From the NCBI GenBank assembly GCA_021827405.1, contig JAKAVY010000002.1, forward strand, positions 12,464-76,463: DNA of 64,000 nucleotides, read 5' to 3'. This DNA is from Thermoplasmata archaeon (GTDB lineage: Archaea > Thermoplasmatota > Thermoplasmata > Lutacidiplasmatales > UBA184). The notes beneath the pieces were generated by a model. The model searched no databases and was not told the DNA's origin. It saw nothing but the letters and a program-made list of their open reading frames with translations. Shown here in pieces: positions 1,203 through 30,290 of the stretch. The number at the start of each line of letters is the position of its first letter. Position 1 is the first letter of the stretch. The position numbers were made by a program, and so were the translations under genes.

Positions 1203-1634
1203 ATGGCGCTGGACCCGGAAGGAGGTTCCTGGCACAGCCGGCTTCGTCGTCGGCTCCGCGCCCGGCGCTTCATGGTAGCGGACGAGAGCCTCGTCCCCCT
1301 GCTGCACCCCGGGGACAAGGTCCTCATGGACCCGGGGGCTTACCGCCGACGTGCGCCGCGCCCCGGCGAGTTCGTGGTCCTGGTGGACCCTCAGGGGCGG
1401 GTGCCGTGGCTCATCAAGCAGGTGGTGGCAGTCCGCGGGTCTTCCAAGGAGGGGAGGGGGGACGGGCCGCAGGTGGAGGTCCAGGGCACGGACCCCAGCC
1501 GGAGCCGGGACAGCCGCACGTTCGGGCCCGTGCCCCTCTCCAGCGTTCTGGGGGAGGCCTACTTCCGTTACTTCCCCCCGGCCCGCCGGGGGCCACTCGG
1601 ACCGGGGTCGGGGGCACCGGACCGGGACCCGTAG
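1203..1634 (+). CDS. sodX: S26 signal-peptidase-like Ni-SOD maturation protease (SodX-like); start uncertain (possibly the internal Met near 1272)
   Basis: Divergently adjacent to sodN. ADESLVPLL...GDKVL resembles the S26 GDSM...GD catalytic region. Confidence 0.55.
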   Translation: MALDPEGGSWHSRLRRRLRARRFMVADESLVPLLHPGDKVLMDPGAYRRRAPRPGEFVVLVDPQGRVPWLIKQVVAVRGSSKEGRGDGPQVEVQGTDPSRSRDSRTFGPVPLSSVLGEAYFRYFPPARRGPLGPGSGAPDRDP

Positions 1635-1768: not shown

Positions 1769-2908
1769 CTAGCTCCTCTCCCGGCCCTCTGAGGGGGCAG
1801 ACCGCACGGACCCGGTCGACCGGATGGACTGGTTCAGCGCGACCTCTGCGATGGTCCCGCAGAGGTGTCGCGCCGTCCCCATCCCCCAGGCGAACATGGC
1901 GAGGGAGGCGGTCTGGCGACGGGGAAGTCGGGCCCTGGCGAGGGCCAACTCCGTCTGCCGGAGGGAGCGCTGCGCCTCCTCTTGCGAACGGAGGACCCGA
2001 TGGGCGAGAGCGCTGTCTTCCCGCAGCAGGGAGCGGGAGGCATCCGTCACCATGGCTCGCAACGCCTCCAGATGTGAGCAGAGGTCCCTACGGAGACGCG
2101 GCGGTATCTCCCGGCCCTCGAGCCCGTCCCCGAGCGCGGACCCGGCTCTGAAGAGCAGGTCCGCGATCTCCTCCAGGACCTTGCCGACGACCCGGCTACC
2201 GAGGAGGTCCGGGGGCTCGGAGACGTCGAGCAGGCCGGCAAGACCACTGTCCTGGTGGGCCAGCATCAACTGGCGAAGGGTAAGGGCGTAGAGCCGGTCT
2301 GCCTCCGACTCCATCTCCCTTAGTTCCTCCAGGGGGATCCGACCTTGGGTCTCCATGGCCCTGGACAGCAGTTGGGTCATCTCCGTCACCACCAGACCGG
2401 CCCGGGCAAGGATCTGGGGGATCGTGTGTCGCCGCGGGTCCACGAAGCTCTGGAGGGCGATGAGGTGCCGGTCCAGGTACACCACTTGGAGCCCAACGAG
2501 GGAGCGAGCCACCCGGGCCACCTCCTTCTGCCGGTCCCGGTCGAACCCCTTCCCGTCGGCCAGTTCGATCCGGTCGTATCCCACCACGTAGGCCCCGAAG
2601 ACGGTCCGGGCCAGGACCTCCGGCTCGGAGAAGTGGGCCTCCTCCACCCGCAATACGCGTTCCCGAAAACGAGGGGCCGGGCCGGAGCCGAACGGATCCA
2701 CCGCGAGGCGACCATCCTCCTGGCCGCAGAGCCAGACCACCGACCCCCGGGACAGGGCGTGGCGTTCCACCCAGTTCTTGGGCAAACTGACCGCGAGGGT
2801 GTGTGGCCCGGATCGGTGGAGGTGCCGGGGCGAAGGAGGGAGACCCGTCCAGGCGCGGGGGCCGGTGCGGGGGAAGGCCTTGCCCGAGGGTCTCTCCTCG
2901 ACCGGCAT
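1769..2908 (-). CDS. PhoU-domain regulator with N-terminal AbrB/SpoVT-like DNA-binding domain (archaeal phosphate-uptake-regulator-like)
   Basis: N-terminus SLPKNWVERHALSRGSVVWLCGQEDGRLAV (looped-hinge helix), followed by helical PhoU-like repeats. Start placed at the ATG near 2908; the 551-aa track ORF has an upstream low-complexity extension that was rejected. Confidence 0.55.
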   Translation of the reverse strand: MPVEERPSGKAFPRTGPRAWTGLPPSPRHLHRSGPHTLAVSLPKNWVERHALSRGSVVWLCGQEDGRLAVDPFGSGPAPRFRERVLRVEEAHFSEPEVLARTVFGAYVVGYDRIELADGKGFDRDRQKEVARVARSLVGLQVVYLDRHLIALQSFVDPRRHTIPQILARAGLVVTEMTQLLSRAMETQGRIPLEELREMESEADRLYALTLRQLMLAHQDSGLAGLLDVSEPPDLLGSRVVGKVLEEIADLLFRAGSALGDGLEGREIPPRLRRDLCSHLEALRAMVTDASRSLLREDSALAHRVLRSQEEAQRSLRQTELALARARLPRRQTASLAMFAWGMGTARHLCGTIAEVALNQSIRSTGSVRSAPSEGRERS

Positions 2909-3125: not shown

Positions 3126-5192
3126 ATGATCCTGGCCGAGGCCCTTCTCCTGGGAGGGATGGTCCTCTTCGTAGGGGGCATGGTTGTCGCCTGGACCCGC
3201 CCGACCGCCGGTGGGGTACGCGGGTCGTTCCTCCTGGGCTCCCTTGGTTGTGCGGTCGCCGCCATCCAGGCCGTGGAGCTGCTCGTCACCGGGACGGCCC
3301 CCTCCCTGGCCATCGGGTTCCCGGGCACCACCACGGGCGTTCCCCTCCTGGCCCTCTCCATCCAGGAGGATCCCCTGTCCGCGTTCTTCCTGCTGGTGGT
3401 AGCGGTCAGCGGCGGCGCGGTCATGCTGGCCTCGGTGGGCTACGTCGACCGCTACGTCCACGAACGCCGGGGGAGGCTCGCCGGCTTGTGCAACCTGTTC
3501 CTCCTGAGCCTGGTGCTGGTCTGTACCGCCGGGACCGTCTTCCTCTTCCTGGTCGCCTGGGAGGGGATGACCCTGGTCTCCTTCCTCCTCGTGGTCCACG
3601 AGCACCACGAACCGGAGAACCGGCAGGCGGGTCTCCGGTACGTGATCATGAGCCACGCGGCCGCGACCGGTGTCATCGCCTCCCTCCTTCTCCTGGCCGT
3701 CGGGACCGGACAGGCCGGTTGGGGCGGCATCGCCCAGGGGACCGCCCGTCTGTCCCCCTGGGTACGGGACGGGGCCTTCCTCGCCGCCCTGGGAGGGTTC
3801 GGGACCAAGGCGGGGATGGTGCCGCTCCACGTCTGGCTGCCCGGCGCCCATCCGGCCGCTCCGAGCAACGTCTCGGCCCTCATGTCCGGCGTCATGGTCA
3901 AGATGGGGATCTTCGGCCTTCTCCGGGTGGTCCTGGACCTCCTGGGGGGTGGCCCCTCGTGGTGGGCCTATGCCCTCCTTGCCTTGGGGGCCCTTTCTGC
4001 CCTGGTGGGGGTCCTCTACGCCATCGTTCAGCACGACCTCAAACGCCTGCTGGCCTTCCATTCCATCGAGAACATCGGGATCATCCTGATGGGGATCGGA
4101 GCGGGGCTGCTCTTCCTGAACCTCGGGTATCCCGCCCTCGCTGCCTTGGCCTTGGCGGCCGCCCTGCTTCACACCTGGAACCACGCGTTGTTCAAGTCCC
4201 TCCTCTTCCTCGGGGCCGGGGCCGCCGTCGGCAGCACCGGGACGCGGGACCTGGAGCGGATGGGGGGGCTCATACGCCGGATGCCGGGGGTCGCCCTGGG
4301 TTTCTTGGTAGGCTCCCTGGCCATCTCGGCCCTCCCCCCGTTCAATGGCTTCGTGAGCGAATGGCTCCTCTTCCAGAGCTTCTTCGCGGCCTTCACCACA
4401 GGGTCCGCGGGGACCGAGATGACGTTCTCAGCCCTCGCCGCGGTGCTGGCCCTGACGAGTGGGCTCGCGGCCTACTGCTTCGTGAAGGCCTTCGGGATCA
4501 CCTTCCTGGCCCGTCCCCGCACTCCCGAGGCGGCGAAGGCGGCCCCCGCGCCCCGGACGCTCGTGGCCGGGATGGGGATCCTCGCGCTATTCTGCCTGGT
4601 GCTGGGAGTGGCGCCCATCCTCGCGTTGGACCTGGCGGGGGGCCCCCTCCGGGAGCTCACCGGGACCACGCTGGGTACGGGAGTCCCCTTTTCCGTGTTC
4701 TCGAGTCTGCCCGGCCCCGGTTCCGTATCCCTCCCCTTCGCCCCGGGCCTCCTCGCGCTCCTCTTGGCCGGTGTCCTCGTCGTGGCCTGGGCCTTCTGGC
4801 GTCTCCGGGGAGCACCGCAGGTCGCCCCGGGACCCACCTGGGATTGCGGGATGGATCGGCCGACCCCGCGCATGGAGTATACCGCGACCGGCTACGCCCA
4901 ACCGCTGACCAGGATCTTCCGGGATTTCTACCGTCCCCGTGACCATGAGGAACGGCGCCCGGCCCTCCAGCCGGGCTGGGGAGATCTCTCCCGGATCAAG
5001 CGCTGGGCCCGGGAGATCGAGGACCCGGTCTGGAGATGGTTCTACCTTCCCCTCTCGCAGGGGACCCTCCATCTGGCCCGAAGGACCAGCCGGCTCCAGT
5101 CGGGCCGGATCCACGCGTACCTGGCCTACATGTTCACCACTCTCGTCCTCTTGCTCCTGCTCGTCCGGGTCGTCTGGGGGGGTACCCCGTGA
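3126..5192 (+). CDS. Hydrogenase-4/complex-I antiporter-like membrane subunit (HyfB/NuoL/MrpA family)
   Basis: 688 aa, polytopic. Motifs WLPGAHPAAPSNVSALMSGVMVKMGIFGLLR and HDLKRLLAFHSIENIG are typical of NuoL/HyfB. Confidence 0.85.
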   Translation: MILAEALLLGGMVLFVGGMVVAWTRPTAGGVRGSFLLGSLGCAVAAIQAVELLVTGTAPSLAIGFPGTTTGVPLLALSIQEDPLSAFFLLVVAVSGGAVMLASVGYVDRYVHERRGRLAGLCNLFLLSLVLVCTAGTVFLFLVAWEGMTLVSFLLVVHEHHEPENRQAGLRYVIMSHAAATGVIASLLLLAVGTGQAGWGGIAQGTARLSPWVRDGAFLAALGGFGTKAGMVPLHVWLPGAHPAAPSNVSALMSGVMVKMGIFGLLRVVLDLLGGGPSWWAYALLALGALSALVGVLYAIVQHDLKRLLAFHSIENIGIILMGIGAGLLFLNLGYPALAALALAAALLHTWNHALFKSLLFLGAGAAVGSTGTRDLERMGGLIRRMPGVALGFLVGSLAISALPPFNGFVSEWLLFQSFFAAFTTGSAGTEMTFSALAAVLALTSGLAAYCFVKAFGITFLARPRTPEAAKAAPAPRTLVAGMGILALFCLVLGVAPILALDLAGGPLRELTGTTLGTGVPFSVFSSLPGPGSVSLPFAPGLLALLLAGVLVVAWAFWRLRGAPQVAPGPTWDCGMDRPTPRMEYTATGYAQPLTRIFRDFYRPRDHEERRPALQPGWGDLSRIKRWAREIEDPVWRWFYLPLSQGTLHLARRTSRLQSGRIHAYLAYMFTTLVLLLLLVRVVWGGTP

Positions 5193-6154
5193 GCCTGCGC
5201 GTGGTGGGGCCGATGGTCCTCCTCCTGCTGGAGTATGCGTTCGTTCTCGCCGTCGGCCCGCTGCTCCTTTCCCTCGGCCGCCGGGTGAAGGCCCGGAGCC
5301 AAGGCCGGACCGGCAGCCCCCTGCTTCAACCGTACCGGGACCTCTGGAAGCTCCTGGGAAAGGGCGCGATCTACTCTGACACCTCGTCCTGGTTGACGCG
5401 CTGGGCCCCCGCGGTCTCCTTCGCGGCCCTGCTGGCCGCGGTCCCGCTCATCCCCTGGCTCGTGCTTCCCGCCCCGTTGGGATACGTGGGGGACCTCATC
5501 GTCCTGGTCGGCCTCCTGGCCCTCTCCCGGTTCATCGTCGCCCTGGCCGCCTTGGATGCGGGGAGCACCTTCGGTGGAATGGGCTCGAGCCGGGACATGT
5601 GGATGGGGGCGCTGGCCGAGCCGGTCTTCCTCCTCGTGATCTTCGCTTTCGGGGGGCCCGCGGGATCCACCCAGGCTGACGTGATCGCCGCGCGCGGCGT
5701 GGCGCTCGGTCTCGGGTACCTGAGCCCTCCGCTCCTGCTCGCCGTGGTGGCCTACGTGCTCCTGCTGCTCGTGGAGACGGGTCGGCTGCCCGTGGACAAC
5801 CCTGCGACCCACTTGGAGCTCACCATGGTCCATGAGGCCCAGACCCTGGAATACACTGGGCGGGACCTCGCGTTGCTGGAGTGGGGTCAGGGCCTCAAGC
5901 TCGCCCTCATGCTCGGGTTGCTCGCCGCCCTGGCCGTTCCCTGGGGGCTCGCGACCACCTGGGGCCTCCTCTTCCTCCTGGCCGCGCTGGCCGTGACCAG
6001 TCTCAAGCTGCTCGGGGGTCATCTCTTCGTGAGCGGCCTGGAGACCCGACTGGCCAAGTGGCGGCTCTTTCGGGTCCCGGATCTCACGACCCTCGCCGTG
6101 GTCCTGGCCTTCGGGTCCCTGGCGCTGACCTACGTCGTGGGGGGGGGCGCGTGA
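5189..6154 (+). CDS. NuoH/HycD/HyfC-like membrane subunit
   Basis: PLLQPYRDLWKLLGK motif (NuoH/HycD signature). GTG start overlaps the upstream stop (GTGA at 5189-5192). Confidence 0.8.
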   Translation: MSLRVVGPMVLLLLEYAFVLAVGPLLLSLGRRVKARSQGRTGSPLLQPYRDLWKLLGKGAIYSDTSSWLTRWAPAVSFAALLAAVPLIPWLVLPAPLGYVGDLIVLVGLLALSRFIVALAALDAGSTFGGMGSSRDMWMGALAEPVFLLVIFAFGGPAGSTQADVIAARGVALGLGYLSPPLLLAVVAYVLLLLVETGRLPVDNPATHLELTMVHEAQTLEYTGRDLALLEWGQGLKLALMLGLLAALAVPWGLATTWGLLFLLAALAVTSLKLLGGHLFVSGLETRLAKWRLFRVPDLTTLAVVLAFGSLALTYVVGGGA

Positions 6155-6807
6155 CGTCGTTCGCGACCCTGGCGTTGGACCTCGCGGCGGCTTCCGCGCT
6201 GGTCACGGCCTGGATCTGCCTGGTCCACCGGAGGATCACGGCGCTCGTGGACACCTACGCCGTCCAGTCCGCCTCGCTGGCGGTCACCGAAGGCCTCATT
6301 GCCTACCTCTACTCCGCTCCGGACCTGTACCTCCTGGCGCTCCTTACCTTCGTCGTGAACGCCCTGGTCCTCCCCGGGGTCCTGCGCCGGGTGGTCCGGG
6401 CCCTGCGGGTGAACCGCATGGTGAACACCTATGCCTCCGTGCGCGTGAGCGCCCTCGCTGGCCTGGGCCTGCTTCTCTTGGCCATCCTGGTGGTCGGACC
6501 CGTCGTCCCGTATGCGGAGGTCTCCTCCGCCGGTCTCCTGCCCATCGCCACGGCCATCCTGCTCATCGGCTTCTTCCTGCTCATCAGCCGGGAGAAGGCG
6601 GTCACCCAGGTAGTGGGCCTCCTGGTGATGAACAACGGCATCCTCCTCGCCGGGATCGCGCTTACCTACGGACTCGGCCTCTTCGTGGAACTGGCCCTGG
6701 CGGCGAACCTCCTGGTGCTGGCCATCGTGGCGCGGATCTTCCTCGCACGCATGAAGGAGTCCTTCGACCACGTAGACGTCGACGCGCTGCGCTCGCTCGA
6801 GGGATGA
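6151..6807 (+). CDS. HyfE-like small membrane subunit (NuoK-related)
   Basis: 218 aa with about 6-7 TM helices, in the position and size of HyfE. GTGA overlap at 6151-6154. Confidence 0.65.
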   Translation: MTSFATLALDLAAASALVTAWICLVHRRITALVDTYAVQSASLAVTEGLIAYLYSAPDLYLLALLTFVVNALVLPGVLRRVVRALRVNRMVNTYASVRVSALAGLGLLLLAILVVGPVVPYAEVSSAGLLPIATAILLIGFFLLISREKAVTQVVGLLVMNNGILLAGIALTYGLGLFVELALAANLLVLAIVARIFLARMKESFDHVDVDALRSLEG

Positions 6808-8297
6808 TCCGGATGATCGAAGGCCCCTTCTGGATGCTGGCCCTGCTTCTGACCCCGCTGGTGGGAGGGGGACTGGTCTGGGTCTCCCGGACCCGGGCCC
6901 AGCTCAATGCCTCGGCGGCGGCCACGGGGGCGGCCTCCTTCGGGTTCCTGCTCTTTGTTTTGGACCAGGTCCTTGCCACTGGACCCACTTTCGCGGTCGG
7001 GGGTCTCCTTTACGTCGACGCCCTCTCGGGGCTGCTCCTGCTCGTCATCACGCTCGTGGGATTGGCGAGCCTGCTCTATTCCATCGACTACCTGGGCCGC
7101 AGCGGAAGCCCGCACGAGGCCTCCGTTCCTCGCCTTCGCCGATACTACGGACTGGTTCTTCTCTTCCTCTTCACCATGTACCTCGTTTCAGAGGCCAACA
7201 ACCTGGGGCTGCTGTGGACCGCCCTGGAGGGGACCACCCTTGTCTCCGCGCTCATGGTCGGCTATTACCAGACCCGCCGGGCCCTGGAGGCATCGTGGAA
7301 GTACCTCATCCTCTGCAGCGCCGGACTCGCCTTCGCCCTGTTCGGGACTCTCCTGCTCTACCTGGCGTCGATCCGGGCCCTGGGATCCGGGGCCTCCGGG
7401 CTCGATTGGACCACCCTCGTCCAGGCCGGCGGACATCTGGACCCGGGGCTGGTCCAACTGGCCTTGGTCTTCCTTTTCGTGGGCTACGGGACCAAGGCGG
7501 GGCTGGCCCCGCTCCACAACTGGCTCCCGGACGCCCACTCGGAGGCCCCCACCCCGGTCTCGGCCCTGCTCTCAGGCGCGCTCTTGAACTGCGCCATGTA
7601 CGCGTTGATCCGGGTAGACGCCATCACGTTAAGGATCCCGGGATTCACGTTGACCCATTGGCTCCTGCTGATCTTCGGTTTGAGCTCGGTCTTCGTCGCC
7701 GCCTTGTTCATCCTCGTCCAGCACGACCTCAAGCGTCTGCTCGCCTACCACTCCGTGGAGCACATGGGGATCATCACCCTAGGGCTCGCCTTTGGTGGGT
7801 TCCTGGGCGTCTTCGGCGCCCTGTATCACCTGCTCAACCATGCGGTCACCAAGGCCGCGCTCTTCCTCATTGGCGGAAACCTCGCCCTCCAGGCCCAGAC
7901 GAAGGACCTCGAACAGATCCAGGGTGCGCTCGCCGCCGTGCCCGCCACCGCGATCGCGCTCCTGCTCGGAGGCCTCGCCCTGGGGGGGGTCCCACCCTTC
8001 TCCGTCTTTGCCAGCGAGTTCGTCATCCTCACCGCGGGGTTCACCGATGGGAATGCCTGGGGGGCGATCCTCCTTCTCGTGGCCCTGGCCATCGTTTTCG
8101 CCGGGCTCATTGGCCATTTGGTCCACATGCTGTTCGGGGGGAACCCCTCCCGGCACTATCTCCCCGGACTGCGCCGTGCGGTGGGGGCTTCGATCGGCGT
8201 AGGGCTCCTTATGGCCCTGGCGCTTGGGCTGGGACTGTTCCTGCCCAACCCGCTCTCCCAGCTCTTGCACGGGGCCGTCCAGGCGGTGAACGGATGA
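6804..8297 (+). CDS. Antiporter-like membrane subunit (HyfF/NuoM/NuoN family)
   Basis: WLPDAHSEAPTPVSALLSGALLNCAMYALIR and HDLKRLLAYHSVEHMG motifs. ATGA overlap at 6804-6807. Confidence 0.85.
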   Translation: MIRMIEGPFWMLALLLTPLVGGGLVWVSRTRAQLNASAAATGAASFGFLLFVLDQVLATGPTFAVGGLLYVDALSGLLLLVITLVGLASLLYSIDYLGRSGSPHEASVPRLRRYYGLVLLFLFTMYLVSEANNLGLLWTALEGTTLVSALMVGYYQTRRALEASWKYLILCSAGLAFALFGTLLLYLASIRALGSGASGLDWTTLVQAGGHLDPGLVQLALVFLFVGYGTKAGLAPLHNWLPDAHSEAPTPVSALLSGALLNCAMYALIRVDAITLRIPGFTLTHWLLLIFGLSSVFVAALFILVQHDLKRLLAYHSVEHMGIITLGLAFGGFLGVFGALYHLLNHAVTKAALFLIGGNLALQAQTKDLEQIQGALAAVPATAIALLLGGLALGGVPPFSVFASEFVILTAGFTDGNAWGAILLLVALAIVFAGLIGHLVHMLFGGNPSRHYLPGLRRAVGASIGVGLLMALALGLGLFLPNPLSQLLHGAVQAVNG

Positions 8298-9940
8298 GCC
8301 CGCCTGCCCAGGAAGGAGAGGAGACCCCCCTTCCCCCTGTGGGGACCCGCCCCCCGCTCCCGGTGGACCGGAACCGTCCGGACCGGGTCGAGGAAGAGAG
8401 GACCCTGGGCGCGTTAGGAGCCGGCCCGGTGACCTGGTTGGAGGGCGAAGGCCTGTGGGCCCTGTCCGTAGACCCCGAGCGATGGCCGGCCATCTGCCGT
8501 TGCATATCCGAGGTGATGCACCACCCGCTCTCCACCCTCTTCGGCGAGGAGGCCCACGGGGGGATCCGGCTGCACGCGCTGTTCCTCGGCCACGACCCCA
8601 CTCCCGGGGTCCATGTCCGCTGTCCGCTGCACCCCGGCGTACTCTCAGCTCCTTCCCTCGCAGCCACCATCCCCTTCGTGGCCCCCTTCGAACGGGAGGT
8701 GGCGGAGATGTTCGGTGTCACCTTCCTAGGGGCCATGGACCGTCGACCGCTTCTCCTGCACGAGAGACACTCGGCCCCACCCCTGCGAAAAGGCCCTCCG
8801 GCCACCCCCACGGGTGAGCTGGAACCCTACGTCTTCCCGCCGGTGGAAGGGGAAGGGGTCTACGAGATCCCCGTGGGTCCGGTACATGCCGGCGTCATCG
8901 AGCCCGGCCACTTCCGTTTCCAGGCCGTGGGGGAGGAGATCCTCGATCTCGAGGTCCGCCTCGGGTACACCCACAAGGGCACGGAGCGCCTCTTCGAGGG
9001 GCAGCCGGTGGCCCGGGGCACCCTCTGGGCGGAGTCCATCTCCGGGGACATGTCCGTTGCGGGGGGAGTCGCCTACGCGCACGCGGCCGAACGGGCCCTG
9101 GACTCCCGGGTTCCGGCGGTCACGGAGGCCGCGCGCGGGCTCCTGCTGGAGCTGGAACGCATCGCGTTCCTCTGCGGAGACGTTGCGGGGATCTCCCTGG
9201 ATGTGGGCTACGCGGTGGGGGCGGCACGGGCCAACCGCCTCCGGGAACGGACCTACGCCGGGCTCCGGTCCCTCACCGGCTCCCGCCTGGGGCGCGCCAT
9301 CGTGGGAGTGGGCGGATTCCGCCGGCCACTCGTGCTGGGCGACCCGGCCGAACTGATCCTGACCCTTCGGGAGACCTCGGCCCGTATCCAGGCCCTCCGG
9401 GACCATCTTCTGGACAAGTCTTCGGTGGTGGACCGGCTCCAGGGAACCGGGATCATTCACCGGTGGACCGCCGAGCTGCTGCATTTCCTCGGACCTACCG
9501 CCCGGGCCTCCGGGCTCAGGATCGACCTCAGGGTGGACCGTCCGTACGGGCCGTACCGAGACGTGGAGGTCCATGTCCCGCGCGGTCTCCAGGGGGATGT
9601 GCAGGATCGCCTCACCGTCAAGGTCGACGAGGTGGTGGAGGCTTGCCGCCTTTCCGAGACCTTCCTAGGCCGCCTCGGGCAAGGGATCCCCCCGGCGCCT
9701 GCCACGCCTCCGCCCCCCGGGGAACCGCGCGAGGGACTCGGCTGGGTGGAATCCCCGCGCGGCGAGTTCCTCGTCTACCTCGCGCTCGCTCCTGACGGTA
9801 CCTTGGGACGGGTCCATGTCCGGGACCCCTCGTTCCTCACGTGGCCCGCCATCGAACAGGCCGTCCGAGGGAACATCGTCCCGGACTTTCCCCTGTGCAA
9901 CAAGAGCCTGAACCTCTCGTATTCGGGGTACGACCGATGA
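8294..9940 (+). CDS. NuoC-NuoD fusion / [NiFe]-hydrogenase large-subunit homolog (HycE/HyfG-like) lacking the NiFe-binding cysteines (Ehr-type)
   Basis: N-terminal NuoC-like domain (EREVAEMFGVTFLGAMDRRPLLL). NuoD/HycE-like core (PVGPVHAGVIEPGHFRF). The L1 motif RxCGxCxxxH is replaced by SISGDMSVAGG. The C-terminal DPCxxCxxR is replaced by DFPLCNKSLNLSYSGYDR. ATGA overlap at 8294-8297. The 908-aa track ORF is an upstream read-through. Confidence 0.85.
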   Translation: MSPPAQEGEETPLPPVGTRPPLPVDRNRPDRVEEERTLGALGAGPVTWLEGEGLWALSVDPERWPAICRCISEVMHHPLSTLFGEEAHGGIRLHALFLGHDPTPGVHVRCPLHPGVLSAPSLAATIPFVAPFEREVAEMFGVTFLGAMDRRPLLLHERHSAPPLRKGPPATPTGELEPYVFPPVEGEGVYEIPVGPVHAGVIEPGHFRFQAVGEEILDLEVRLGYTHKGTERLFEGQPVARGTLWAESISGDMSVAGGVAYAHAAERALDSRVPAVTEAARGLLLELERIAFLCGDVAGISLDVGYAVGAARANRLRERTYAGLRSLTGSRLGRAIVGVGGFRRPLVLGDPAELILTLRETSARIQALRDHLLDKSSVVDRLQGTGIIHRWTAELLHFLGPTARASGLRIDLRVDRPYGPYRDVEVHVPRGLQGDVQDRLTVKVDEVVEACRLSETFLGRLGQGIPPAPATPPPPGEPREGLGWVESPRGEFLVYLALAPDGTLGRVHVRDPSFLTWPAIEQAVRGNIVPDFPLCNKSLNLSYSGYDR

Positions 9941-10803
9941 CGTCCCGCCCGGACCTGCGTACGGTTGTCTCTGCGGCGGCTCCCGCCGGCCGTTCGGCAC
10001 GGGATGAGAGCCAGACCCTCCGCTACCCCCTCGGACCCCTACCGGTCCTGCCACGTCCTTGGCGGACCCCCCGACACGATGCGGGGCGCTGTGACGGCAC
10101 CGGGGCCTGCGCGACGGCATGCCCCACCGGGGCTCTCGAGGTCACCAGCACCGGTGGCCAGGACCGGGTGACGCTGGACTACGGGAAGTGCCTCTTCTGC
10201 TCACTCTGCGTGGATGCGTGTCCCTCCGGGGCCATGACCTCCACCCCGTTCGAGGAGCTCTCCGTCCGCCGACGGGGGGACCTGATCGCTGTCCACCCGT
10301 CCGTTGCGTCGCTCAACCCCTCCGACGAGCTCAGGCGCGAGGTGGCCACAAGTGTGGGCCGCCTCTTCGCGGGGTCCCTATCGATCCGGGCGGTGGACGC
10401 GGGCAGTTGCAATGGCTGTGAGGTCGAGGTGGGAGCGCTCCTTTGGCCCCGGTACGACCTGGAACGGCTGGGGATCCACCTGGTGGCTTCGCCGCGACAC
10501 GCGGATGCCCTCTTGGTCACGGGCCCGGTCACGCGCAACATGCGCCAGGCACTGGAGAAGACCTATCGTGCCGTCCCTCCTCCTCGATTTGTGCTGGCCG
10601 TCGGAGCGTGCGGGATCTCCGGCGGGCCCTTCGCCGGTTCGGCCGAGGTAGAGGGGGGGGTGGACCGGGTACTTCCCGTCGAGGTCTACATCCCGGGGTG
10701 CCCTCCCTCGCCGGTGGCTCTGCTCCACGGGTTGTGGCTCGCCCTCGGCAAGGTCGAACAACGGATGGTCCGGGGGGAGTTCTCCTCAGGGATCCCACCG
10801 TAA
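9937..10803 (+). CDS. Fusion of 2x[4Fe-4S] ferredoxin (NuoI/HycF-like) and NuoB/HycG-like small subunit
   Basis: KCLFCSLCVDACP (canonical) plus an atypical RCDGTGACATACP. Then the NuoB signatures SCNGCE, GACGISGGPF and YIPGCPP. ATGA overlap at 9937-9940. Confidence 0.85.
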   Translation: MTSRPDLRTVVSAAAPAGRSARDESQTLRYPLGPLPVLPRPWRTPRHDAGRCDGTGACATACPTGALEVTSTGGQDRVTLDYGKCLFCSLCVDACPSGAMTSTPFEELSVRRRGDLIAVHPSVASLNPSDELRREVATSVGRLFAGSLSIRAVDAGSCNGCEVEVGALLWPRYDLERLGIHLVASPRHADALLVTGPVTRNMRQALEKTYRAVPPPRFVLAVGACGISGGPFAGSAEVEGGVDRVLPVEVYIPGCPPSPVALLHGLWLALGKVEQRMVRGEFSSGIPP

Positions 10804-15143: not shown

Positions 15144-17969
15144 ATGGGAGGGAGCCGGCGGGCATCCACGTCGAGACCCGGGGGTCCGCTTTGGAGGAGA
15201 GGGTTGTCGCCCCCACGTCGAGGCAAGCCCGCATTCGGCCGCGGATGCGGTGAGCCGGCCCCGGGCCCGAAACATGCGGTCGCCCTGCTCGGACTGATCG
15301 GCCTCCTCCTGGTTTCGGGATCGGCCCAGGGTCTGTTCGCGCCGGCGGAGCCCCTCTCGCGGGAGGCGGGGTCCGGTGCCCCCGGACATTCGGTCCTCCC
15401 TTCCCTGAGCGGCCGTCCCGCGCCCTCACGGCCGTCCGTCCCCGGGAAGGAGGCCACGACCAGACCCTTCGTCACCCCACCGACACCGATGTTCCGGGCC
15501 GGCCCTGAACCTCCCGTCTCCCCTCGGACGGGCATCGCGCATGCGAGCGGCACCGTCCTCTACGTGTCCCCCTCCGGCTCCAACGGGAACCCGTGTACCG
15601 CGACCGAGCCGTGCCGGCAGATCAACACCGCCGTAGACCGGGCCGCCCCGGGAGACACCGTGCTCGTGGCTAACGGGACGTACCTGGGCTTCGAACTGGA
15701 CGGGACTCACGGTGAGCCGGGCGCCCCGATCATCATCACCGACCCCGGCCACGACGCCGTGATCGAGACCAACGGGTCCTGCTGTAACTGGACCAGCCAG
15801 GGAGAGCAGGACCAGATGTACTTCAACCAGGTCTCCTGGGTGGTGGTCAACGGGCTCCGCAGCTACCAGATCCAATCCACCGTCCCTACCGCGAACCTCT
15901 GGGTGAGTCAGAGCAACAATCTCACGCTGAGCAATCTGACCTTCGAGAACGGCACCTACGTGAATGCCTCCACCGGGTGGCCGAGCAAGGCCAGCCTTTT
16001 CCTGGACCTCTCCACGAACATCACCATCGAGTATGACAACATCTCGGGGGCCAAGGGGTCCCATGGGATCTACTTCAACAACGACGGCCTGCCGTTGACC
16101 TACGGCGATGTGATCCGGAACAACATCCTCGACGATAACAATTGGACGGGGGTCCAACTGGTCTACGCCAGCCACTGCCAGGTGGAGGACAACGTGCTCG
16201 CCGGTAACGGGGCGGGGGGGGCCGCAGGGATCAGCCTTCGCGAAGTGGTGGACTCGGAGGTCCTGAACAATTTGGTCTATGACGAACTGGGGGCGGGCCT
16301 CAGCATCGTGGAGGATGCCTCCCCGGCGGGGGGAACGCAAACCTCGGGGAATCTCATCGCCTACAACACGGTGGTGGTGGGGGCAGCCGGGCGGGCCGCT
16401 CTCATTGTGGGGGCCGGATCCACGGGACCCGGGAATGTCCTGAGGGACAACATTCTCTACACGGAGGACAACGCCGTCTGGCCCTCTCTTGACTTCCAGG
16501 GCTCCAGCGGGACCGCAGACCTGGTGGGGGACCACAACGTGCTTCAATCTGTGGAAGACCCCAACGGAAGCTACTCCCTGGCCCAGTGGCAGTCCCTGGG
16601 CTACGAGAACGGTTCCCTCTCCGCCACCCCGTCGGAGCTCTTCGTCAACGCCACCCAGGGGGACTACCAGCTCGCTCCTCTATCCCCTGCGACGAACGCC
16701 GGCATCGCGATTCCCTCCGTGACCAGCGATATCCAGGGTGACCCACGTCCCGTCTCCGGGTCTTCGGACATCGGTTGCTATGAGAGCGCGAGTCCCTCGC
16801 TCCGGGCCGTGGCCTCGGCCTACCCGGGGAACGGGACCGCCCCTTTGACCGTGACCTTCACGGGCACCGGCTCCGGTGGGAGCGCTCCCTACCGCTACGA
16901 ATGGACCTACGGGGATGGGACCGCCCCCTCTCAGGCTGCCGACCCGCAGCACACGTACAACACCAGCGGCTCCTTTCCCGTGGAACTGACCATCGAGGAC
17001 GCCCGGGGGGGACTGGCCCACGCCTTCCTGAACGTCAGCGTGACGGCCCCCATCCCCTTCTCGGTCCAAATTCAAGCCAACCTCTCCGGTCCCACCGCGG
17101 GCGAGCCCGTGTTCTTCACCGGAGGGGCCTCGGGAGGGACTCCACCGTACTCCGGTTGGGATTGGACCTTTGGCGACGGCTCGACGGCCACGGGTCAGAA
17201 TGTCTCCCACGCGTTCACGAACCCCGGGAACTATAGCGTGGCTCTGAAGGCCACGGACTCACGGGATCGCACGGCCAACGCGTCCTTCCACCTCCAGGTT
17301 TGGGCTCAGCCAACCCTCGCCGTCTCCCTCCAGACCAATGTCACGAGCCTTCCGCTGGGGAGGGCGGTGGCGGTCTCGACCACGGTCAGCGGGGGGACCG
17401 GGCCGTACACGGTCCAGTACGCCGGCCTCCCCCCCGGTTGTGGCGGGGAGAGCGCCTTGGCCTTCTCCTGCGAGCCCGCACAGGCTGGCCATTACAACAT
17501 CACCGCGAAGGTGACGGACACGGTCGGCCGCGCTGGCCAGAGCCCTCCGGCCCCGCTATACGTCCAGGTTCCGTTGTTCCCCCTCTCCGTTCACCTGGAG
17601 ATCTCCTCCCCTTCGGTCCCGGCCGGCACCCTCGTGACGCTGACCTCGATCTCGTCGGGTGGGAGCGGGGGGCCCTTCTCTTACTCCTGGTCCGGACTCC
17701 CGGCGGGGTGCACGAACCTCGACGAGCCATCCCTGGACTGCGTTGTGTCGACCCCAGGGTCCTACCACATTTCCGTCCGGGTCACGGATGCCCAGGGGCA
17801 ATCCAACGCCAGCCAGCCGGTAGGTCTGGTGGTGGCGCCGTCCAAGGCACCTTCCCCGGGTGAGCCCTTCGGTCCCGAAGTGGTCTTCTCCATCACGGCC
17901 CTGATCGCAGGTGCGGTCGTGGTCGCCGGCGTGTATGTTCTACGCCGACGTGCGAGAGGGGCCCACTGA
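15144..17969 (+). CDS. Large secreted surface (S-layer-like) glycoprotein: parallel beta-helix (pectin-lyase fold) + PKD/Ig-like domains + C-terminal TM anchor
   Basis: Signal-peptide-like HAVALLGLIGLLLVSGSAQG. NGTY/NNLTLSNLTFENGTYVNAS beta-helix repeats. PKD motif (TAPLTVTFTGTGSGGSAPYRYEWTYGDGT). C-terminal VVFSITALIAGAVVVAGVYVLRRRAR. Very many N-x-S/T sequons. Start codon uncertain. Confidence 0.75.
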   Translation: MGGSRRASTSRPGGPLWRRGLSPPRRGKPAFGRGCGEPAPGPKHAVALLGLIGLLLVSGSAQGLFAPAEPLSREAGSGAPGHSVLPSLSGRPAPSRPSVPGKEATTRPFVTPPTPMFRAGPEPPVSPRTGIAHASGTVLYVSPSGSNGNPCTATEPCRQINTAVDRAAPGDTVLVANGTYLGFELDGTHGEPGAPIIITDPGHDAVIETNGSCCNWTSQGEQDQMYFNQVSWVVVNGLRSYQIQSTVPTANLWVSQSNNLTLSNLTFENGTYVNASTGWPSKASLFLDLSTNITIEYDNISGAKGSHGIYFNNDGLPLTYGDVIRNNILDDNNWTGVQLVYASHCQVEDNVLAGNGAGGAAGISLREVVDSEVLNNLVYDELGAGLSIVEDASPAGGTQTSGNLIAYNTVVVGAAGRAALIVGAGSTGPGNVLRDNILYTEDNAVWPSLDFQGSSGTADLVGDHNVLQSVEDPNGSYSLAQWQSLGYENGSLSATPSELFVNATQGDYQLAPLSPATNAGIAIPSVTSDIQGDPRPVSGSSDIGCYESASPSLRAVASAYPGNGTAPLTVTFTGTGSGGSAPYRYEWTYGDGTAPSQAADPQHTYNTSGSFPVELTIEDARGGLAHAFLNVSVTAPIPFSVQIQANLSGPTAGEPVFFTGGASGGTPPYSGWDWTFGDGSTATGQNVSHAFTNPGNYSVALKATDSRDRTANASFHLQVWAQPTLAVSLQTNVTSLPLGRAVAVSTTVSGGTGPYTVQYAGLPPGCGGESALAFSCEPAQAGHYNITAKVTDTVGRAGQSPPAPLYVQVPLFPLSVHLEISSPSVPAGTLVTLTSISSGGSGGPFSYSWSGLPAGCTNLDEPSLDCVVSTPGSYHISVRVTDAQGQSNASQPVGLVVAPSKAPSPGEPFGPEVVFSITALIAGAVVVAGVYVLRRRARGAH

Positions 17970-18701: not shown

Positions 18702-19099
18702 GCCCGGTTTGGGGGCTCTTGACCAAGGAGTCAGCCCCTCCGTTCTTCGGTCGGAAGCGCAACGACACGACCCGGTGGAAGTCCCGGAGGAGGAGGGTGA
18801 GGCACGCGAAGCGATGGGCCCGATGGGTGCCCCGCTCCTCCTTCGTCTTGACCGGCTGATTCCGCCTGGCGTCCGGGGTCTGACCATGGTAAGGCAGGTC
18901 GGGGTCGTCGATGGCGAAGTCGACCGGCTCGCCAGGAAGGATGGGTCAGACATGGCGGGGAAGGGCCAGGGTGATGGCGCGCTGGATCTTCCCGAGTGGA
19001 GGTGGCCGAGGACGTACGGGCGGTCCTGTCGGACCGACCACTCCGATACTGGGAGCGCGGGGCAAGGCCGGGGGAGCGCGTGGCGGACGCCCGGAGGAG

Positions 19100-19640
19100 A
19101 AGGTCCGCGTTGGCCACGCCTCCAAAGGAACTCGGAGGCGACGGGCGTTAGTCGTCTTCGTGGACGAGAGCGGTCTCTCGCCATCCCCTACCGTGCGAAG
19201 ACCTGGGTAACGGTGGGGAAGACCCCGGTGTTGGTGCATCAGGGGCGATGGCCGAAGGTCTCCGCGATCGGAGGGGGCACGTGTTCGCCTCCACCTGAAG
19301 GTGCGGAAGGGGTCCGTCCGCGGGTCTCAGGTGATCGCGTTCCTGAAGCGCCCCCTCCTGCACATCCGGAGGAAGCCGGTCATACTCCTCTGGGACAAGG
19401 GGCCGCACCCCGGTCCAAACTGGTGCGTGCCTTCCCGCGCCAGCCGCGTCCACTGGAGGTGCACCGACATCCCGGGCACAGCCCCGAACTGAACCCAGAG
19501 GAGTGGTTCTGGCCTCATCTCCAGACGCATGAACTGGCCAGCTACGTCCCCCATGCCCTGACAGAGTCGATGAAAGGGGTCTGGCTGGCGGTGATGAGAG
19601 CGCGGGACCACCCGCGTCTCTTGCGACCGTTCGCCCACGT
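19100..19640 (+). mobile_element. IS630/Tc1-mariner-family transposase gene remnant (pseudogene, at least 3 frameshifts, N-terminus missing)
   Basis: DDE motifs split over frames: ALVVFVDESGLSPSPTVRR, then (frame shift) VTVGKTPVLV, then KPVILLWDKGPHP (second D), then (frame shift) HSPELNPEEWFWPHLQ. No intact ORF. Confidence 0.7.
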
Positions 19641-19860
19641 CGGAGTCAGGGATCGCCGATGCGGATCGTCAAGGGACCTCATGTGAAGCCACAGCGGTGG
19701 GGTTCAAGGAAATTACTTGACGGTCAAGAATACCACTGTGCTTGCCTTACAAGCTTAACCCCACCCCTCGAGAGGTGCTTATCGCGGGGGAAGGACGGTT
19801 GGACGGACACGACCTGTGCCCAAAGACGGCTCCGGTGTCCAAACAGGGGGCAGACCTTCT

Positions 19861-22278: not shown

Positions 22279-22645
22279 GGCGACCGACCTCGACCCATGA
22301 ACGACCGGTCGAGGGGGCTCTCTTGGAAGCACCTGTTGTGGCGAGAATCTCCCTTCACGGGGCCGGCGAAGATGTTCCTGGTGCCCATCGAGAGCCAGTC
22401 CAGGGAGGGCCCCCGTCCGTTAAGGACCTCATTCGATCTTCCTCGACCCGGCAGGTCACGGCCGGGCTCGGCGCGGCCGCCTCCAAGGGTACCTCGCGAG
22501 AAGGAAGCATCGTGCTCCCCTCGCGAGGGTATCTCTGGAAGCAACCCTGAACCTGGCCTCTAGGCGTGGACCCAGGTTTCTCTCAGAAAGGTTCCGCTAC
22601 GTGGAGGACTACGGTAACGCTGGCGTCAGGGTGCAGGGAGGAAGT

Positions 22646-22719
22646 AGCGGGGCATGGATTTGAACCATGGATCTACGGGTTATGAGCCCGTCGGGATGAC
22701 CTGACTACCCTACCCCGCT
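22646..22719 (-). tRNA. Archaeal initiator tRNA-Met (anticodon CAU), no encoded CCA
   Basis: Reverse complement AGCGGGGTAGGGTAGTCAGGTCATCCCGACGGGCTCATAACCCGTAGATCCATGGTTCAAATCCATGCCCCGCT. A1:U72 pair. Anticodon stem ACGGG/CCCGT with 3 consecutive G:C pairs. CAT anticodon. T-arm CATGG-TTCAAAT-CCATG. Confidence 0.85.
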
Positions 22720-30217: not shown

Positions 30218-30290
30218 AGCCGCGGGAGGGAATCGAACCCTCGACCTACTCCTTACCAAGGAGTCGCTCTACCGACTGAGCCACCGCGGC
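30218..30290 (-). tRNA. tRNA-Thr (anticodon GGU), no encoded CCA
   Basis: Reverse complement GCCGCGGTGGCTCAGTCGGTAGAGCGACTCCTTGGTAAGGAGTAGGTCGAGGGTTCGATTCCCTCCCGCGGCT. Cloverleaf with 7-bp acceptor stem, GGT anticodon in loop TTGGTAA, T-loop GGTTCGATTCC. Confidence 0.85.

Follow-up and report, generated by a model that had tools for sequence, protein, structure and literature searches.

Introduction

Hydrogenase homologs of the class Ehr were reportedly termed Ech-hydrogenase-related by Coppi in 2005, and the reading energy-converting hydrogenase-related is said to stem from Marreiros et al. in 2013. Knowledge of the missing NiFe ligands in Ehr thus goes back to 2005 and 2013, and genome-resolved metagenomics annotates the class routinely. 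The class is defined by the absence of the motifs RxCGxCxxxH and DPCxxCxxH/R, with homologs of nuoH, nuoL, HyfE, and HyfB alongside (PMC4378227), and a further account has it without the Ni- and Fe-coordinating residues (PMC6349859). In Geobacter sulfurreducens, the named subunits include EhrA (NuoL-like), EhrC (HyfE-like), EhrL, and EhrS (PMC7894505). Members are known from ammonia-oxidizing archaea (AOA) and comammox Nitrospira (PMC10432482, PMC10284858), Methanomassiliicoccales (PMC6147122), bacteria of the candidate phyla radiation (CPR; PMC7304191), Mycobacterium tuberculosis (PMC6728331), and Saganbacteria (PMC6349859). HydDB leaves Ehr out as hydrogenase homologs that do not metabolize H2 (PMC5037454), and the function is given as unknown (PMC4378227, PMC6349859, PMC10284858, PMC10432482, PMC7894505, PMC6147122, PMC7304191). 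It has been suggested that Ehr complexes are intermediate between complex I and the membrane hydrogenases. The Protein Data Bank (PDB) contains no Ehr complex, the nearest solved chain being HycE. Here, we analyze an ehr operon, and in particular its large-subunit gene ehrL, in a 64 000-nucleotide stretch of DNA (the window; positions are counted from its first base) from a Thermoplasmata archaeon (Lutacidiplasmatales, UBA184; assembly GCA_021827405.1, contig JAKAVY010000002.1, positions 12 464 to 76 463 of the forward strand).

The operon encodes the full set of EhrA–D, EhrL, and EhrS, comprising NuoL/HyfB-, NuoH-, HyfE-, and HyfF-like membrane subunits and a small subunit. A scan of species genomes (see below) recovered the EhrL motif family from lineages with published Ehr, namely Nitrospira, AOA, Saganbacteria, Methanomassiliicoccales, and CPR. 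We are highly confident that the complex is a member of the Ehr class, which is already described and widespread. A preliminary description of the locus had treated the missing NiFe-ligating cysteines as a discovery; they are instead a defining feature of Ehr (PMC4378227, PMC6349859, PMC10284858, PMC10432482, PMC7304191, HydDB PMC5037454).

A large subunit without NiFe ligands

The gene ehrL (8294..9940, + strand) is an open reading frame (ORF) of 548 codons for amino acids that overlaps ehrD by ATGA, begins with ATG, ends with TGA, and has no internal stop. It encodes a fusion of NuoC- and NuoD-like parts. The NuoC-like (30 kDa) domain (residues 58–170; 8465..8803, +) matches Pfam PF00329 Complex1_30kDa (E 2.5e-11) and is followed by a match to Complex1_49kDa, the NuoD/hydrogenase large-subunit domain (E 5.8e-36). 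The closest solved sequence relative is Escherichia coli HycE (7z0s_E; E 4.4e-46, 28% identity). With high posterior support, HMMER pairs HycE RVCGICGFAHS with EhrL SISGDMSVAGG (residues 248–258; 9035..9067, +), and HycE DPCYSCTDR with EhrL NLSYSGYDR, which lies in the L2-equivalent segment DFPLCNKSLNLSYSGYDR (residues 531–548; 9884..9937, +). The positions of the four NiFe ligands are occupied by Ser250 (TCC) and Met253 (ATG) in the first segment and by Ser542 (TCG) and Gly545 (GGG) in the second, and both NiFe-binding motifs, L1 (RxCGxCxxxH) and L2 (DPCxxCxxH/R), are absent. The preliminary description had drawn the same conclusion from an alignment made by eye. That alignment was not shifted: no conserved Cys pairs fall at L1 or L2, and the single Cys it had noted near L2, Cys535, stands in a column of I, C, or V. 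EhrL has six Cys in all (68, 70, 110, 294, 451, and 535), none of them in a CxxC pair and none conserved across the family. The protein ends in DR and carries no maturation peptide. An AlphaFold2 model built with 51 homologs was confident (predicted local distance difference test (pLDDT) 88.8, predicted template modeling score 0.91). Because this model superposes on HycE (7z0s_E; template modeling score 0.87–0.89, root-mean-square deviation 2.8 Å, 532 columns), the register of the alignment is not in doubt. EhrL is thus almost certainly without a canonical NiFe(CO)(CN)2 site.

The surrounding scaffold is preserved, as the preliminary description had stated for the NuoC-like domain and the core sequence PVGPVHAGVIEPGHFRF. 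The latter is the hydrogenase-type β1-β2 loop (residues 193–209; 8870..8920, +), in which His198 is invariant and Glu203 is conserved in at least 90% of sequences. In an ungapped HMMER alignment to Nqo4 of Thermus thermophilus complex I (2fug_4), the quinone ligands Tyr87 and His38 correspond to Gly251 and Ile202, and Asp139 is retained as Asp303. The hydrogenase-type proton-relay residue Glu203, His198, and Asp303 are all conserved in EhrL. The missing quinone ligands bear on the idea that EhrL is the NuoC/NuoD subunit of the respiratory complex I of the host, which we consider extremely improbable. Pfam and NCBIfam models of NuoC/NuoD do match the protein, and NCBI labels close homologs “NADH-quinone oxidoreductase subunit C”. 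However, all NCBIfam NuoD matches fall far under the cut-off (e.g. 158.7 bits vs 360), the best solved relative is HycE rather than NuoD, and the small subunit has a proximal CxxC instead of a tandem Cys-Cys. Moreover, the operon is of the six-gene Hyf/Hyc type and lacks the Nuo-type set of NuoA, NuoJ, NuoK, and NuoN. Labels such as the one above, “formate hydrogenlyase subunit 5”, or “hydrogenase large subunit” on genes of this kind are not evidence for H2 metabolism or complex I.

Residues 1–30 of EhrL (8294-8383) form a Pro-, Glu-, and Arg-rich N-terminal extension with predicted disorder (pLDDT below 50), which also occurs, weakly conserved, in relatives from the same clade.

Selection on EhrL and spread of the Cys-less state

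The Cys-less state (i.e. without the ligand Cys) was shared by all 120 best homologs of EhrL in a collection of 5.8 billion proteins, and these had common replacement motifs, E-[SR]-[IV]-S-G-D and D-F-P-x-x-N-K-S-[FL]-x-L-S-Y-[SA]-G-x-D-[RLM]. Invariance was judged on a 51-sequence alignment of diverse homologs with a mean column identity of 51%. Invariant positions comprised Ser250, Gly251, and Asp252 in the L1 segment, and Asp531, Phe532, Pro533, Asn536, Lys537, Ser538, Ser542, Tyr543, Gly545, and Asp547 in the L2 segment. The two former ligand segments thereby hold 13 invariant positions out of 32, compared with 65 out of 548 for the whole of EhrL (hypergeometric p = 1.7e-5).

Strain-level copies of the gene (loci L001–L003) differ by 0–1 nt and are uninformative on selection, so the ratio of non-synonymous to synonymous substitution rates (dN/dS, Nei-Gojobori) was calculated for homologs that are 56–82% identical (dS 0.57–1.4, partly saturated). 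It was 0.17 between EhrL and a 70%-identical homolog on locus L007 (dS 1.3), 0.20 for L008 against L009, both further members of the clade (dS 0.57), and 0.23–0.31 in more distant pairs. The gene evolves under purifying selection, and the preliminary description was right to call it maintained rather than decayed. Loss of all four catalytic ligands might by itself suggest a decaying hydrogenase pseudogene. That explanation is refuted here by the intact and translationally coupled reading frame, the dN/dS values, the confident structural model, a replaced site whose conservation exceeds that of the remaining protein, and the recurrence of the same state in at least hundreds of species.

The genome scan, which used one genome per Genome Taxonomy Database (GTDB) species, gave at least 600 matches, 593 of them encoding relatives, and 80 loci were kept. 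The signature thus occurs in the genomes of at least 593 species, spread over many phyla of bacteria and archaea. In 78 of the 80 loci, the ligand Cys were missing and the replacement motifs were present. The other two, from Ectobacillus funiculus (L052) and a Peptococcaceae metagenome-assembled genome (MAG; L086), kept all four Cys (RICGVC...ELCYACCDR) together with VGPxHAGxIEPGHFRF, DFPLINKSF, and the gene order ABCDLS. They are probably the true hydrogenase lineage nearest to Ehr, and the flanking motifs they share with Cys-less members fit a derivation of Ehr from a hydrogenase. In a rough neighbor-joining tree (no bootstrap, rooted on two Ech large subunits), EhrL and relatives annotated as Thermoplasmata were monophyletic within the Cys-less radiation. 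The Cys-less clade, which includes members from Nitrospira, AOA, Saganbacteria, Methanomassiliicoccales, and CPR, was well apart from the Ech outgroups in this tree, from which labeled Ehr references such as GSU0743 were absent. EhrL descends from the group-4 [NiFe]-hydrogenase/complex I scaffold. The Cys loss is ancient and family-wide and not a recent event in this genome, its polarity being seen in the rough neighbor-joining tree only.

We also considered Asn536-Lys537-Ser538 as an Ehr-specific substitute for the metal site. This was rejected, as the four-Cys loci L052 and L086 have the same DFPLINKSF.

Two Nitrospirota MAGs (L054 and L088) carry tandem ehr operons (ABCDLS-ABCDLS), and their top-scoring large subunit reads S-G-T at the otherwise invariant S-G-D. 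In a bacterial MAG (L005, 12927-17959) and a Methanomassiliicoccus MAG (L011, 9140-14172), a bona fide Ech-type hydrogenase operon lies directly 3′ of the ehr operon. The Ech-type large subunits there read RVCGICS[FY]HH and DPCICCTDR. Both systems stand side by side.

Operon structure, membrane subunits, and gene neighborhood

EhrL is encoded by the fifth of six + strand genes, and four of the five junctions are 4-nt overlaps (GTGA or ATGA); the six ehr genes are translationally coupled. The order ABCDLS recurred in 42 of the related loci examined, archaeal and bacterial alike. The first gene, ehrA (3126..5192, +), encodes a HyfB/HycC/NuoL-like antiporter-type membrane subunit of 688 amino acids (Pfam Proton_antipo_M, E 1.6e-50) that scores 662.9 bits against the NCBIfam model for hydrogenase-4 subunit B, below its cut-off of 667. 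Its top PDB relative is HycC (7z0s_C, E 1.1e-73), with which the Glu of transmembrane helix (TM) 5 and the Lys of TM7, TM8, and TM12 align. EhrB (5189..6154, +; GTGA overlap with ehrA) is a HycD/NuoH-like membrane subunit of 321 amino acids (Pfam NADHdh, E 5.1e-31) whose top PDB relative is HycD (7z0s_D, E 1.1e-40). EhrC (6151..6807, +; GTGA overlap with ehrB) is a small HyfE-like membrane subunit of 218 amino acids. It matches the NCBIfam hydrogenase-4 membrane subunit (HyfE) under the cut-off (E 2.2e-16) and Pfam Oxidored_q2 weakly, and a PDB search with it returned no solved relative. EhrD (6813..8297, +), a HyfF/NuoM-N-like antiporter-type subunit of 494 amino acids, matches Pfam Proton_antipo_M (E 9.1e-54) and NCBIfam hydrogenase-4 subunit F (E 3.5e-138). 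Aligned to MbhH/MbsH, it retains Glu in TM5 and Lys in both TM7 and TM12, and has Asn in place of the TM8 Lys.

A Pfam scan of the 135 nearest-neighbor ORFs of related loci revealed no conserved redox-partner gene beside ehr operons. This absence fits a diffusible donor such as ferredoxin. The neighbors were heterogeneous, with universal stress protein (Usp) genes in 6/135 and ArsR-type helix-turn-helix genes in 4/135. For Saganbacteria, a formate-dehydrogenase partner has been proposed; it has no counterpart at the ehr locus of the window.

Usp genes were the commonest immediate neighbors (e.g. L005 12375-12773, L006 12395-12829, and L001 980-1420), a setting that recalls the hypoxia/DosR context of M. 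tuberculosis Rv0081-Rv0087 (PMC6728331).

Divergent from the operon, the window encodes an AbrB/MazE-like and PhoU-like protein (1769..2908, − strand; Pfam PhoU). Homologs lie beside ehr at L007 (3481-4638, 73% identity), L008 (3517-4455, 63%), and L004 (12540-13673, 34%), and the gene adjoins ehr in every Thermoplasmata-clade locus that has flanking sequence. A 22%-identical homolog lies 7 kb from ehr in an ANME-2 locus. We tentatively regard this protein as a candidate regulator of the ehr operon.

Iron-sulfur clusters of the small subunit

EhrS (9937..10803, +; 288 amino acids, ATGA overlap with ehrL) fuses a HycF/NuoI-like domain for two [Fe-S] clusters to a HycG/NuoB-like small subunit. 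It matches Pfam Fer4 families and Oxidored_q6 (E 7.5e-29), and its PDB relatives include MbhJ (E 1.4e-41) and HycG (E 2.8e-40). The first ferredoxin motif, CDGTGACATACP (residues 52–63; 10090..10125, +), has Thr55 at its second Cys position, leaving the distal cluster three Cys ligands only in the pattern C-x2-T-x2-C-x3-CP. All five Thermoplasmata-clade sequences examined, including L004, L007, L008, and L009, show this pattern, and a Methanomassiliicoccales relative has Asp at the equivalent of Thr55. The second motif, CLFCSLCVDACP (residues 85–96; 10189..10224, +), is complete and corresponds to the medial cluster. Ligands for the proximal (N2-equivalent) [4Fe-4S] cluster (10408..10701, +) are Cys158 and Cys161 (CNGC), Cys225 (GAC), and Cys255 (GCPP); the motif SCNGCE is a hydrogenase-type CxxC and not the tandem Cys-Cys of complex I.

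Across the sampled loci, the Fe-S complement of the small subunit forms a series. Three full clusters were present in 12 loci, and in 20 loci (Acidobacteria, AOA, and Verrucomicrobia) the distal cluster was lost with the medial and proximal ones retained. A NuoB-like-only small subunit was found in 31 loci, a count that may be inflated by separate small ferredoxin genes missed by the ORF/phmmer filter. No Fe-S ligands remained in three Methanosarcinales loci (L019, L027, and L060) or in L031 and L053. The SGD and SY.G motifs of EhrL persist over the entire series, from three clusters to none. A ferredoxin-NuoB fusion was considered as a clade-specific trait and rejected, such fusions being common in Acidobacteria, AOA, and others.

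The cluster-free end of this series invites the explanation that the peripheral arm is redox-inactive, i.e. that the complex is an ion transporter, antiporter, or sensor with EhrL and EhrS as a structural or regulatory cap and Fe-S clusters that are structural or redox-sensing. The five loci without Fe-S ligands keep SGD, NKS..SY.G.D, and the membrane subunits, which favors such a cap, as do the lack of a conserved electron-donor or -acceptor gene beside ehr operons and the prevalence of Usp genes among the neighbors. Yet the three-cluster wire keeps every one of its 11 Cys within the Thermoplasmata clade, at 56–70% sequence identity, which is hard to explain without electron transfer, and the proton-relay Glu and Asp303 (the Asp139 equivalent) are conserved as well. 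On balance, we judge a redox-inactive arm unlikely for the complex in the window.

Proposed function

The sequences show a three-cluster wire and antiporter-type modules, both intact, and a polar, strongly conserved pocket where the NiFe site would be. We lean toward the reading that the complex would still be redox-driven and ion-translocating, and with a similar leaning we picture it, from its sequence, as a ferredoxin-linked redox complex whose acceptor may be something other than H+. A soluble one-electron carrier, probably ferredoxin, would trade electrons with the distal cluster of EhrS; ferredoxin is the most plausible carrier because no conserved partner gene was found. From the distal cluster, electrons would then travel through the medial one, reach the proximal [4Fe-4S] cluster, and leave it for a proton-coupled acceptor site. 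This putative site would be a remodeled pocket at the EhrL/EhrS/EhrB interface, formed by Ser250-Gly251-Asp252, Glu203, and Ser542-Tyr543-Ser544-Gly545. Electron transfer could be coupled to the movement of H+ or Na+ via EhrB, EhrC, and the antiporter-like EhrA and EhrD, or the process could run in reverse, driven by an ion gradient. For this aerotolerant host, the foremost candidate acceptor would be a membrane quinone, possible but doubtful.

Several observations weigh against a ferredoxin-linked complex of this kind or its suggested acceptor. The complex I quinone ligands are missing at Gly251 and Ile202, and Ehr is present in lineages from which quinone synthesis is reportedly absent, e.g. 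Riflemargulisbacteria (PMC6349859). Thr55 could make the three-Cys distal cluster a higher-potential [3Fe-4S] cluster, a poor fit to low-potential ferredoxin. The ferredoxin domain is missing from some members and every Fe-S ligand from others, such as the Methanosarcinales loci L019, L027, and L060, with the EhrL motifs kept, so what the pocket does across the family may be something other than redox catalysis. The literature offers no biochemical datum for any Ehr complex, and none has been purified. We think it rather unlikely that the invariant Ser-Gly-Asp/Ser-Tyr-Ser-Gly pocket, rather than being a vestige, forms a novel site for catalysis or ligand binding. Such a site might serve non-canonical H2 chemistry (as claimed for Hyq, see below) or the reduction or binding of an unrecognized substrate. 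Alternatively, the pocket might gate an ion pump that resembles complex I and works independently of redox chemistry; a gate is conceivable because the pocket is conserved even in members without any Fe-S cluster.

Genomic setting of the window

The window is archaeal, with genes for Nop5, diphthamide synthase, NAC, and HMG-CoA reductase. A protein identical to EhrL is encoded on contigs of GCA_027321945.1 and GCA_027378675.1, and close homologs carry the names Thermoplasmata or Euryarchaeota archaeon. A nickel superoxide dismutase (Ni-SOD) and an S26-type peptidase resembling the SodX maturation protease are encoded at 619-1158 (−) and 1203-1634 (+). The Ni-SOD (Pfam Sod_Ni, E 1.2e-43) has the Ni-hook HCDIPCGIY behind a leader peptide, from which it follows that the organism handles Ni, though the hydrogenase-like EhrL does not bind it. 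Genes for peroxiredoxin and OsmC are present in addition to Ni-SOD in this aerotolerant host. Between 18000 and 22000, GC content falls to 0.61–0.64 from ~0.70 elsewhere. This region contains a DDE_3 transposase-like gene (~18814-19686) and may be an insertion; just upstream, a 941-amino-acid PKD/NosD beta-helix surface protein is encoded (15144-17969). The window also contains tRNA-Met (CAT; 22644-22719, −) and tRNA-Thr (GGT; 30218-30290, −).

Comparison with known systems

Among solved systems, NuoC/NuoD of complex I (Nqo5/Nqo4) resemble EhrL in the absence of NiFe ligands, in fold (template modeling score ~0.8 to E. coli NuoCD), and in adjoining a NuoB-type [4Fe-4S] cluster and a NuoH-like subunit. 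By contrast, complex I has the Tyr87/His38 quinone ligands and the tandem Cys-Cys of N2, and the complex of the window has only six subunits. Pyrococcus MBS/Mbx (6u8y) is likewise derived from group 4, has given up H2 chemistry, and has kept an Fe-S wire and ion-translocating modules. It is, however, more distant (6u8y_L, E 7.6e-20) and has 13 subunits with an Mrp module, and nothing at the window locus points to sulfur chemistry like that of the MBS sulfane-sulfur reductase. HycE/HyfG (group 4a) share with EhrL the NuoC-NuoD fusion and the EPGHFRF loop, and the order hyfB-C-E-F-G-H-I resembles that of ehr. They differ in that HycE has RVCGICGFAHS, DPCYSCTDR, and a cleaved C-terminal peptide, whereas EhrL is without those Cys and ends at DR.

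Hyq of Azorhizobium caulinodans (hyqBCEFGI) raises the possibility that such a complex remains a hydrogenase whose catalytic site is non-canonical, as proposed for the Hyq “endo-hydrogenase”, to which H2 recycling or evolution against the quinone pool has been ascribed. HyqG is also a Cys-less NuoC-NuoD fusion, and the six-subunit make-up of the membrane complex is identical (NuoL-, NuoH-, NuoJ/K-, NuoM-, NuoCD-, and NuoB-like; PMC3357923). There is published evidence, from genetics and physiology, for H2 recycling that depends on hyq (PMC2650096, PMC3357923), and EhrL retains the hydrogenase-type Glu203. The DFPLCNKSF motif type of Hyq occurs in alphaproteobacterial loci of the EhrL family, four of which (L045, L078, L083, and L089) carry DFPLC-NKSFN-C with the spacing of HyqG Cys-491/Cys-497. 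Unlike the ehr operon of the window, Hyq is part of the diazotroph nif regulon, and a ferredoxin domain is missing from HyqI. Of the three Cys reportedly conserved in HyqG (Cys-258, Cys-491, Cys-497), EhrL has one, with Cys535 as the presumed Cys-491 by motif spacing rather than alignment; on the same spacing, EhrL has Leu at position 541 and Ala262 in the mostly-Cys column of the family. No Cys is conserved family-wide. Among the ~46/52 predicted ORFs scanned in the 64-kb window, no hyp maturation, formate dehydrogenase, HycB, NuoEFG, or other hydrogenase genes were found. To the Hyq authors themselves, a NiFe site in HyqG is “uncertain, if not unlikely” (PMC3357923), Ehr is regarded by HydDB and by later genomic work as unable to interact with H2 (PMC5037454, PMC7304191), and no enzyme has been purified. 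A non-canonical hydrogenase in the window is, in our view, quite improbable. The preliminary description had claimed a loss of hydrogen chemistry with the scaffold kept. The kept scaffold and the lack of a canonical NiFe site stand, while the loss of the chemistry itself is deduced from the missing ligands and faces the H2 recycling claimed for Hyq.

The closest match in kind is the Ehr of G. sulfurreducens (EhrA-D, EhrL, and EhrS; GSU0739-45), which, by its published description, combines a group-4-like large subunit without CxxC motifs with the same subunit types as the operon of the window. Set against Ehr as published, the Thermoplasmata subclade has also lost the L1 His (VAGG for xAH), has Met, His, or Ser at position 253 (Met in EhrL), and has fused ferredoxin-like and NuoB-like proteins and a distal cluster with three Cys and Thr. 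The window leaves the general picture of Ehr unchanged and adds to it a Thermoplasmata-like subclade whose Fe-S wire is complete, includes an unusual three-Cys distal cluster, and is fused with the small subunit. With its wire kept and fused in this way, the complex is a reasonable candidate for biochemical or structural work.

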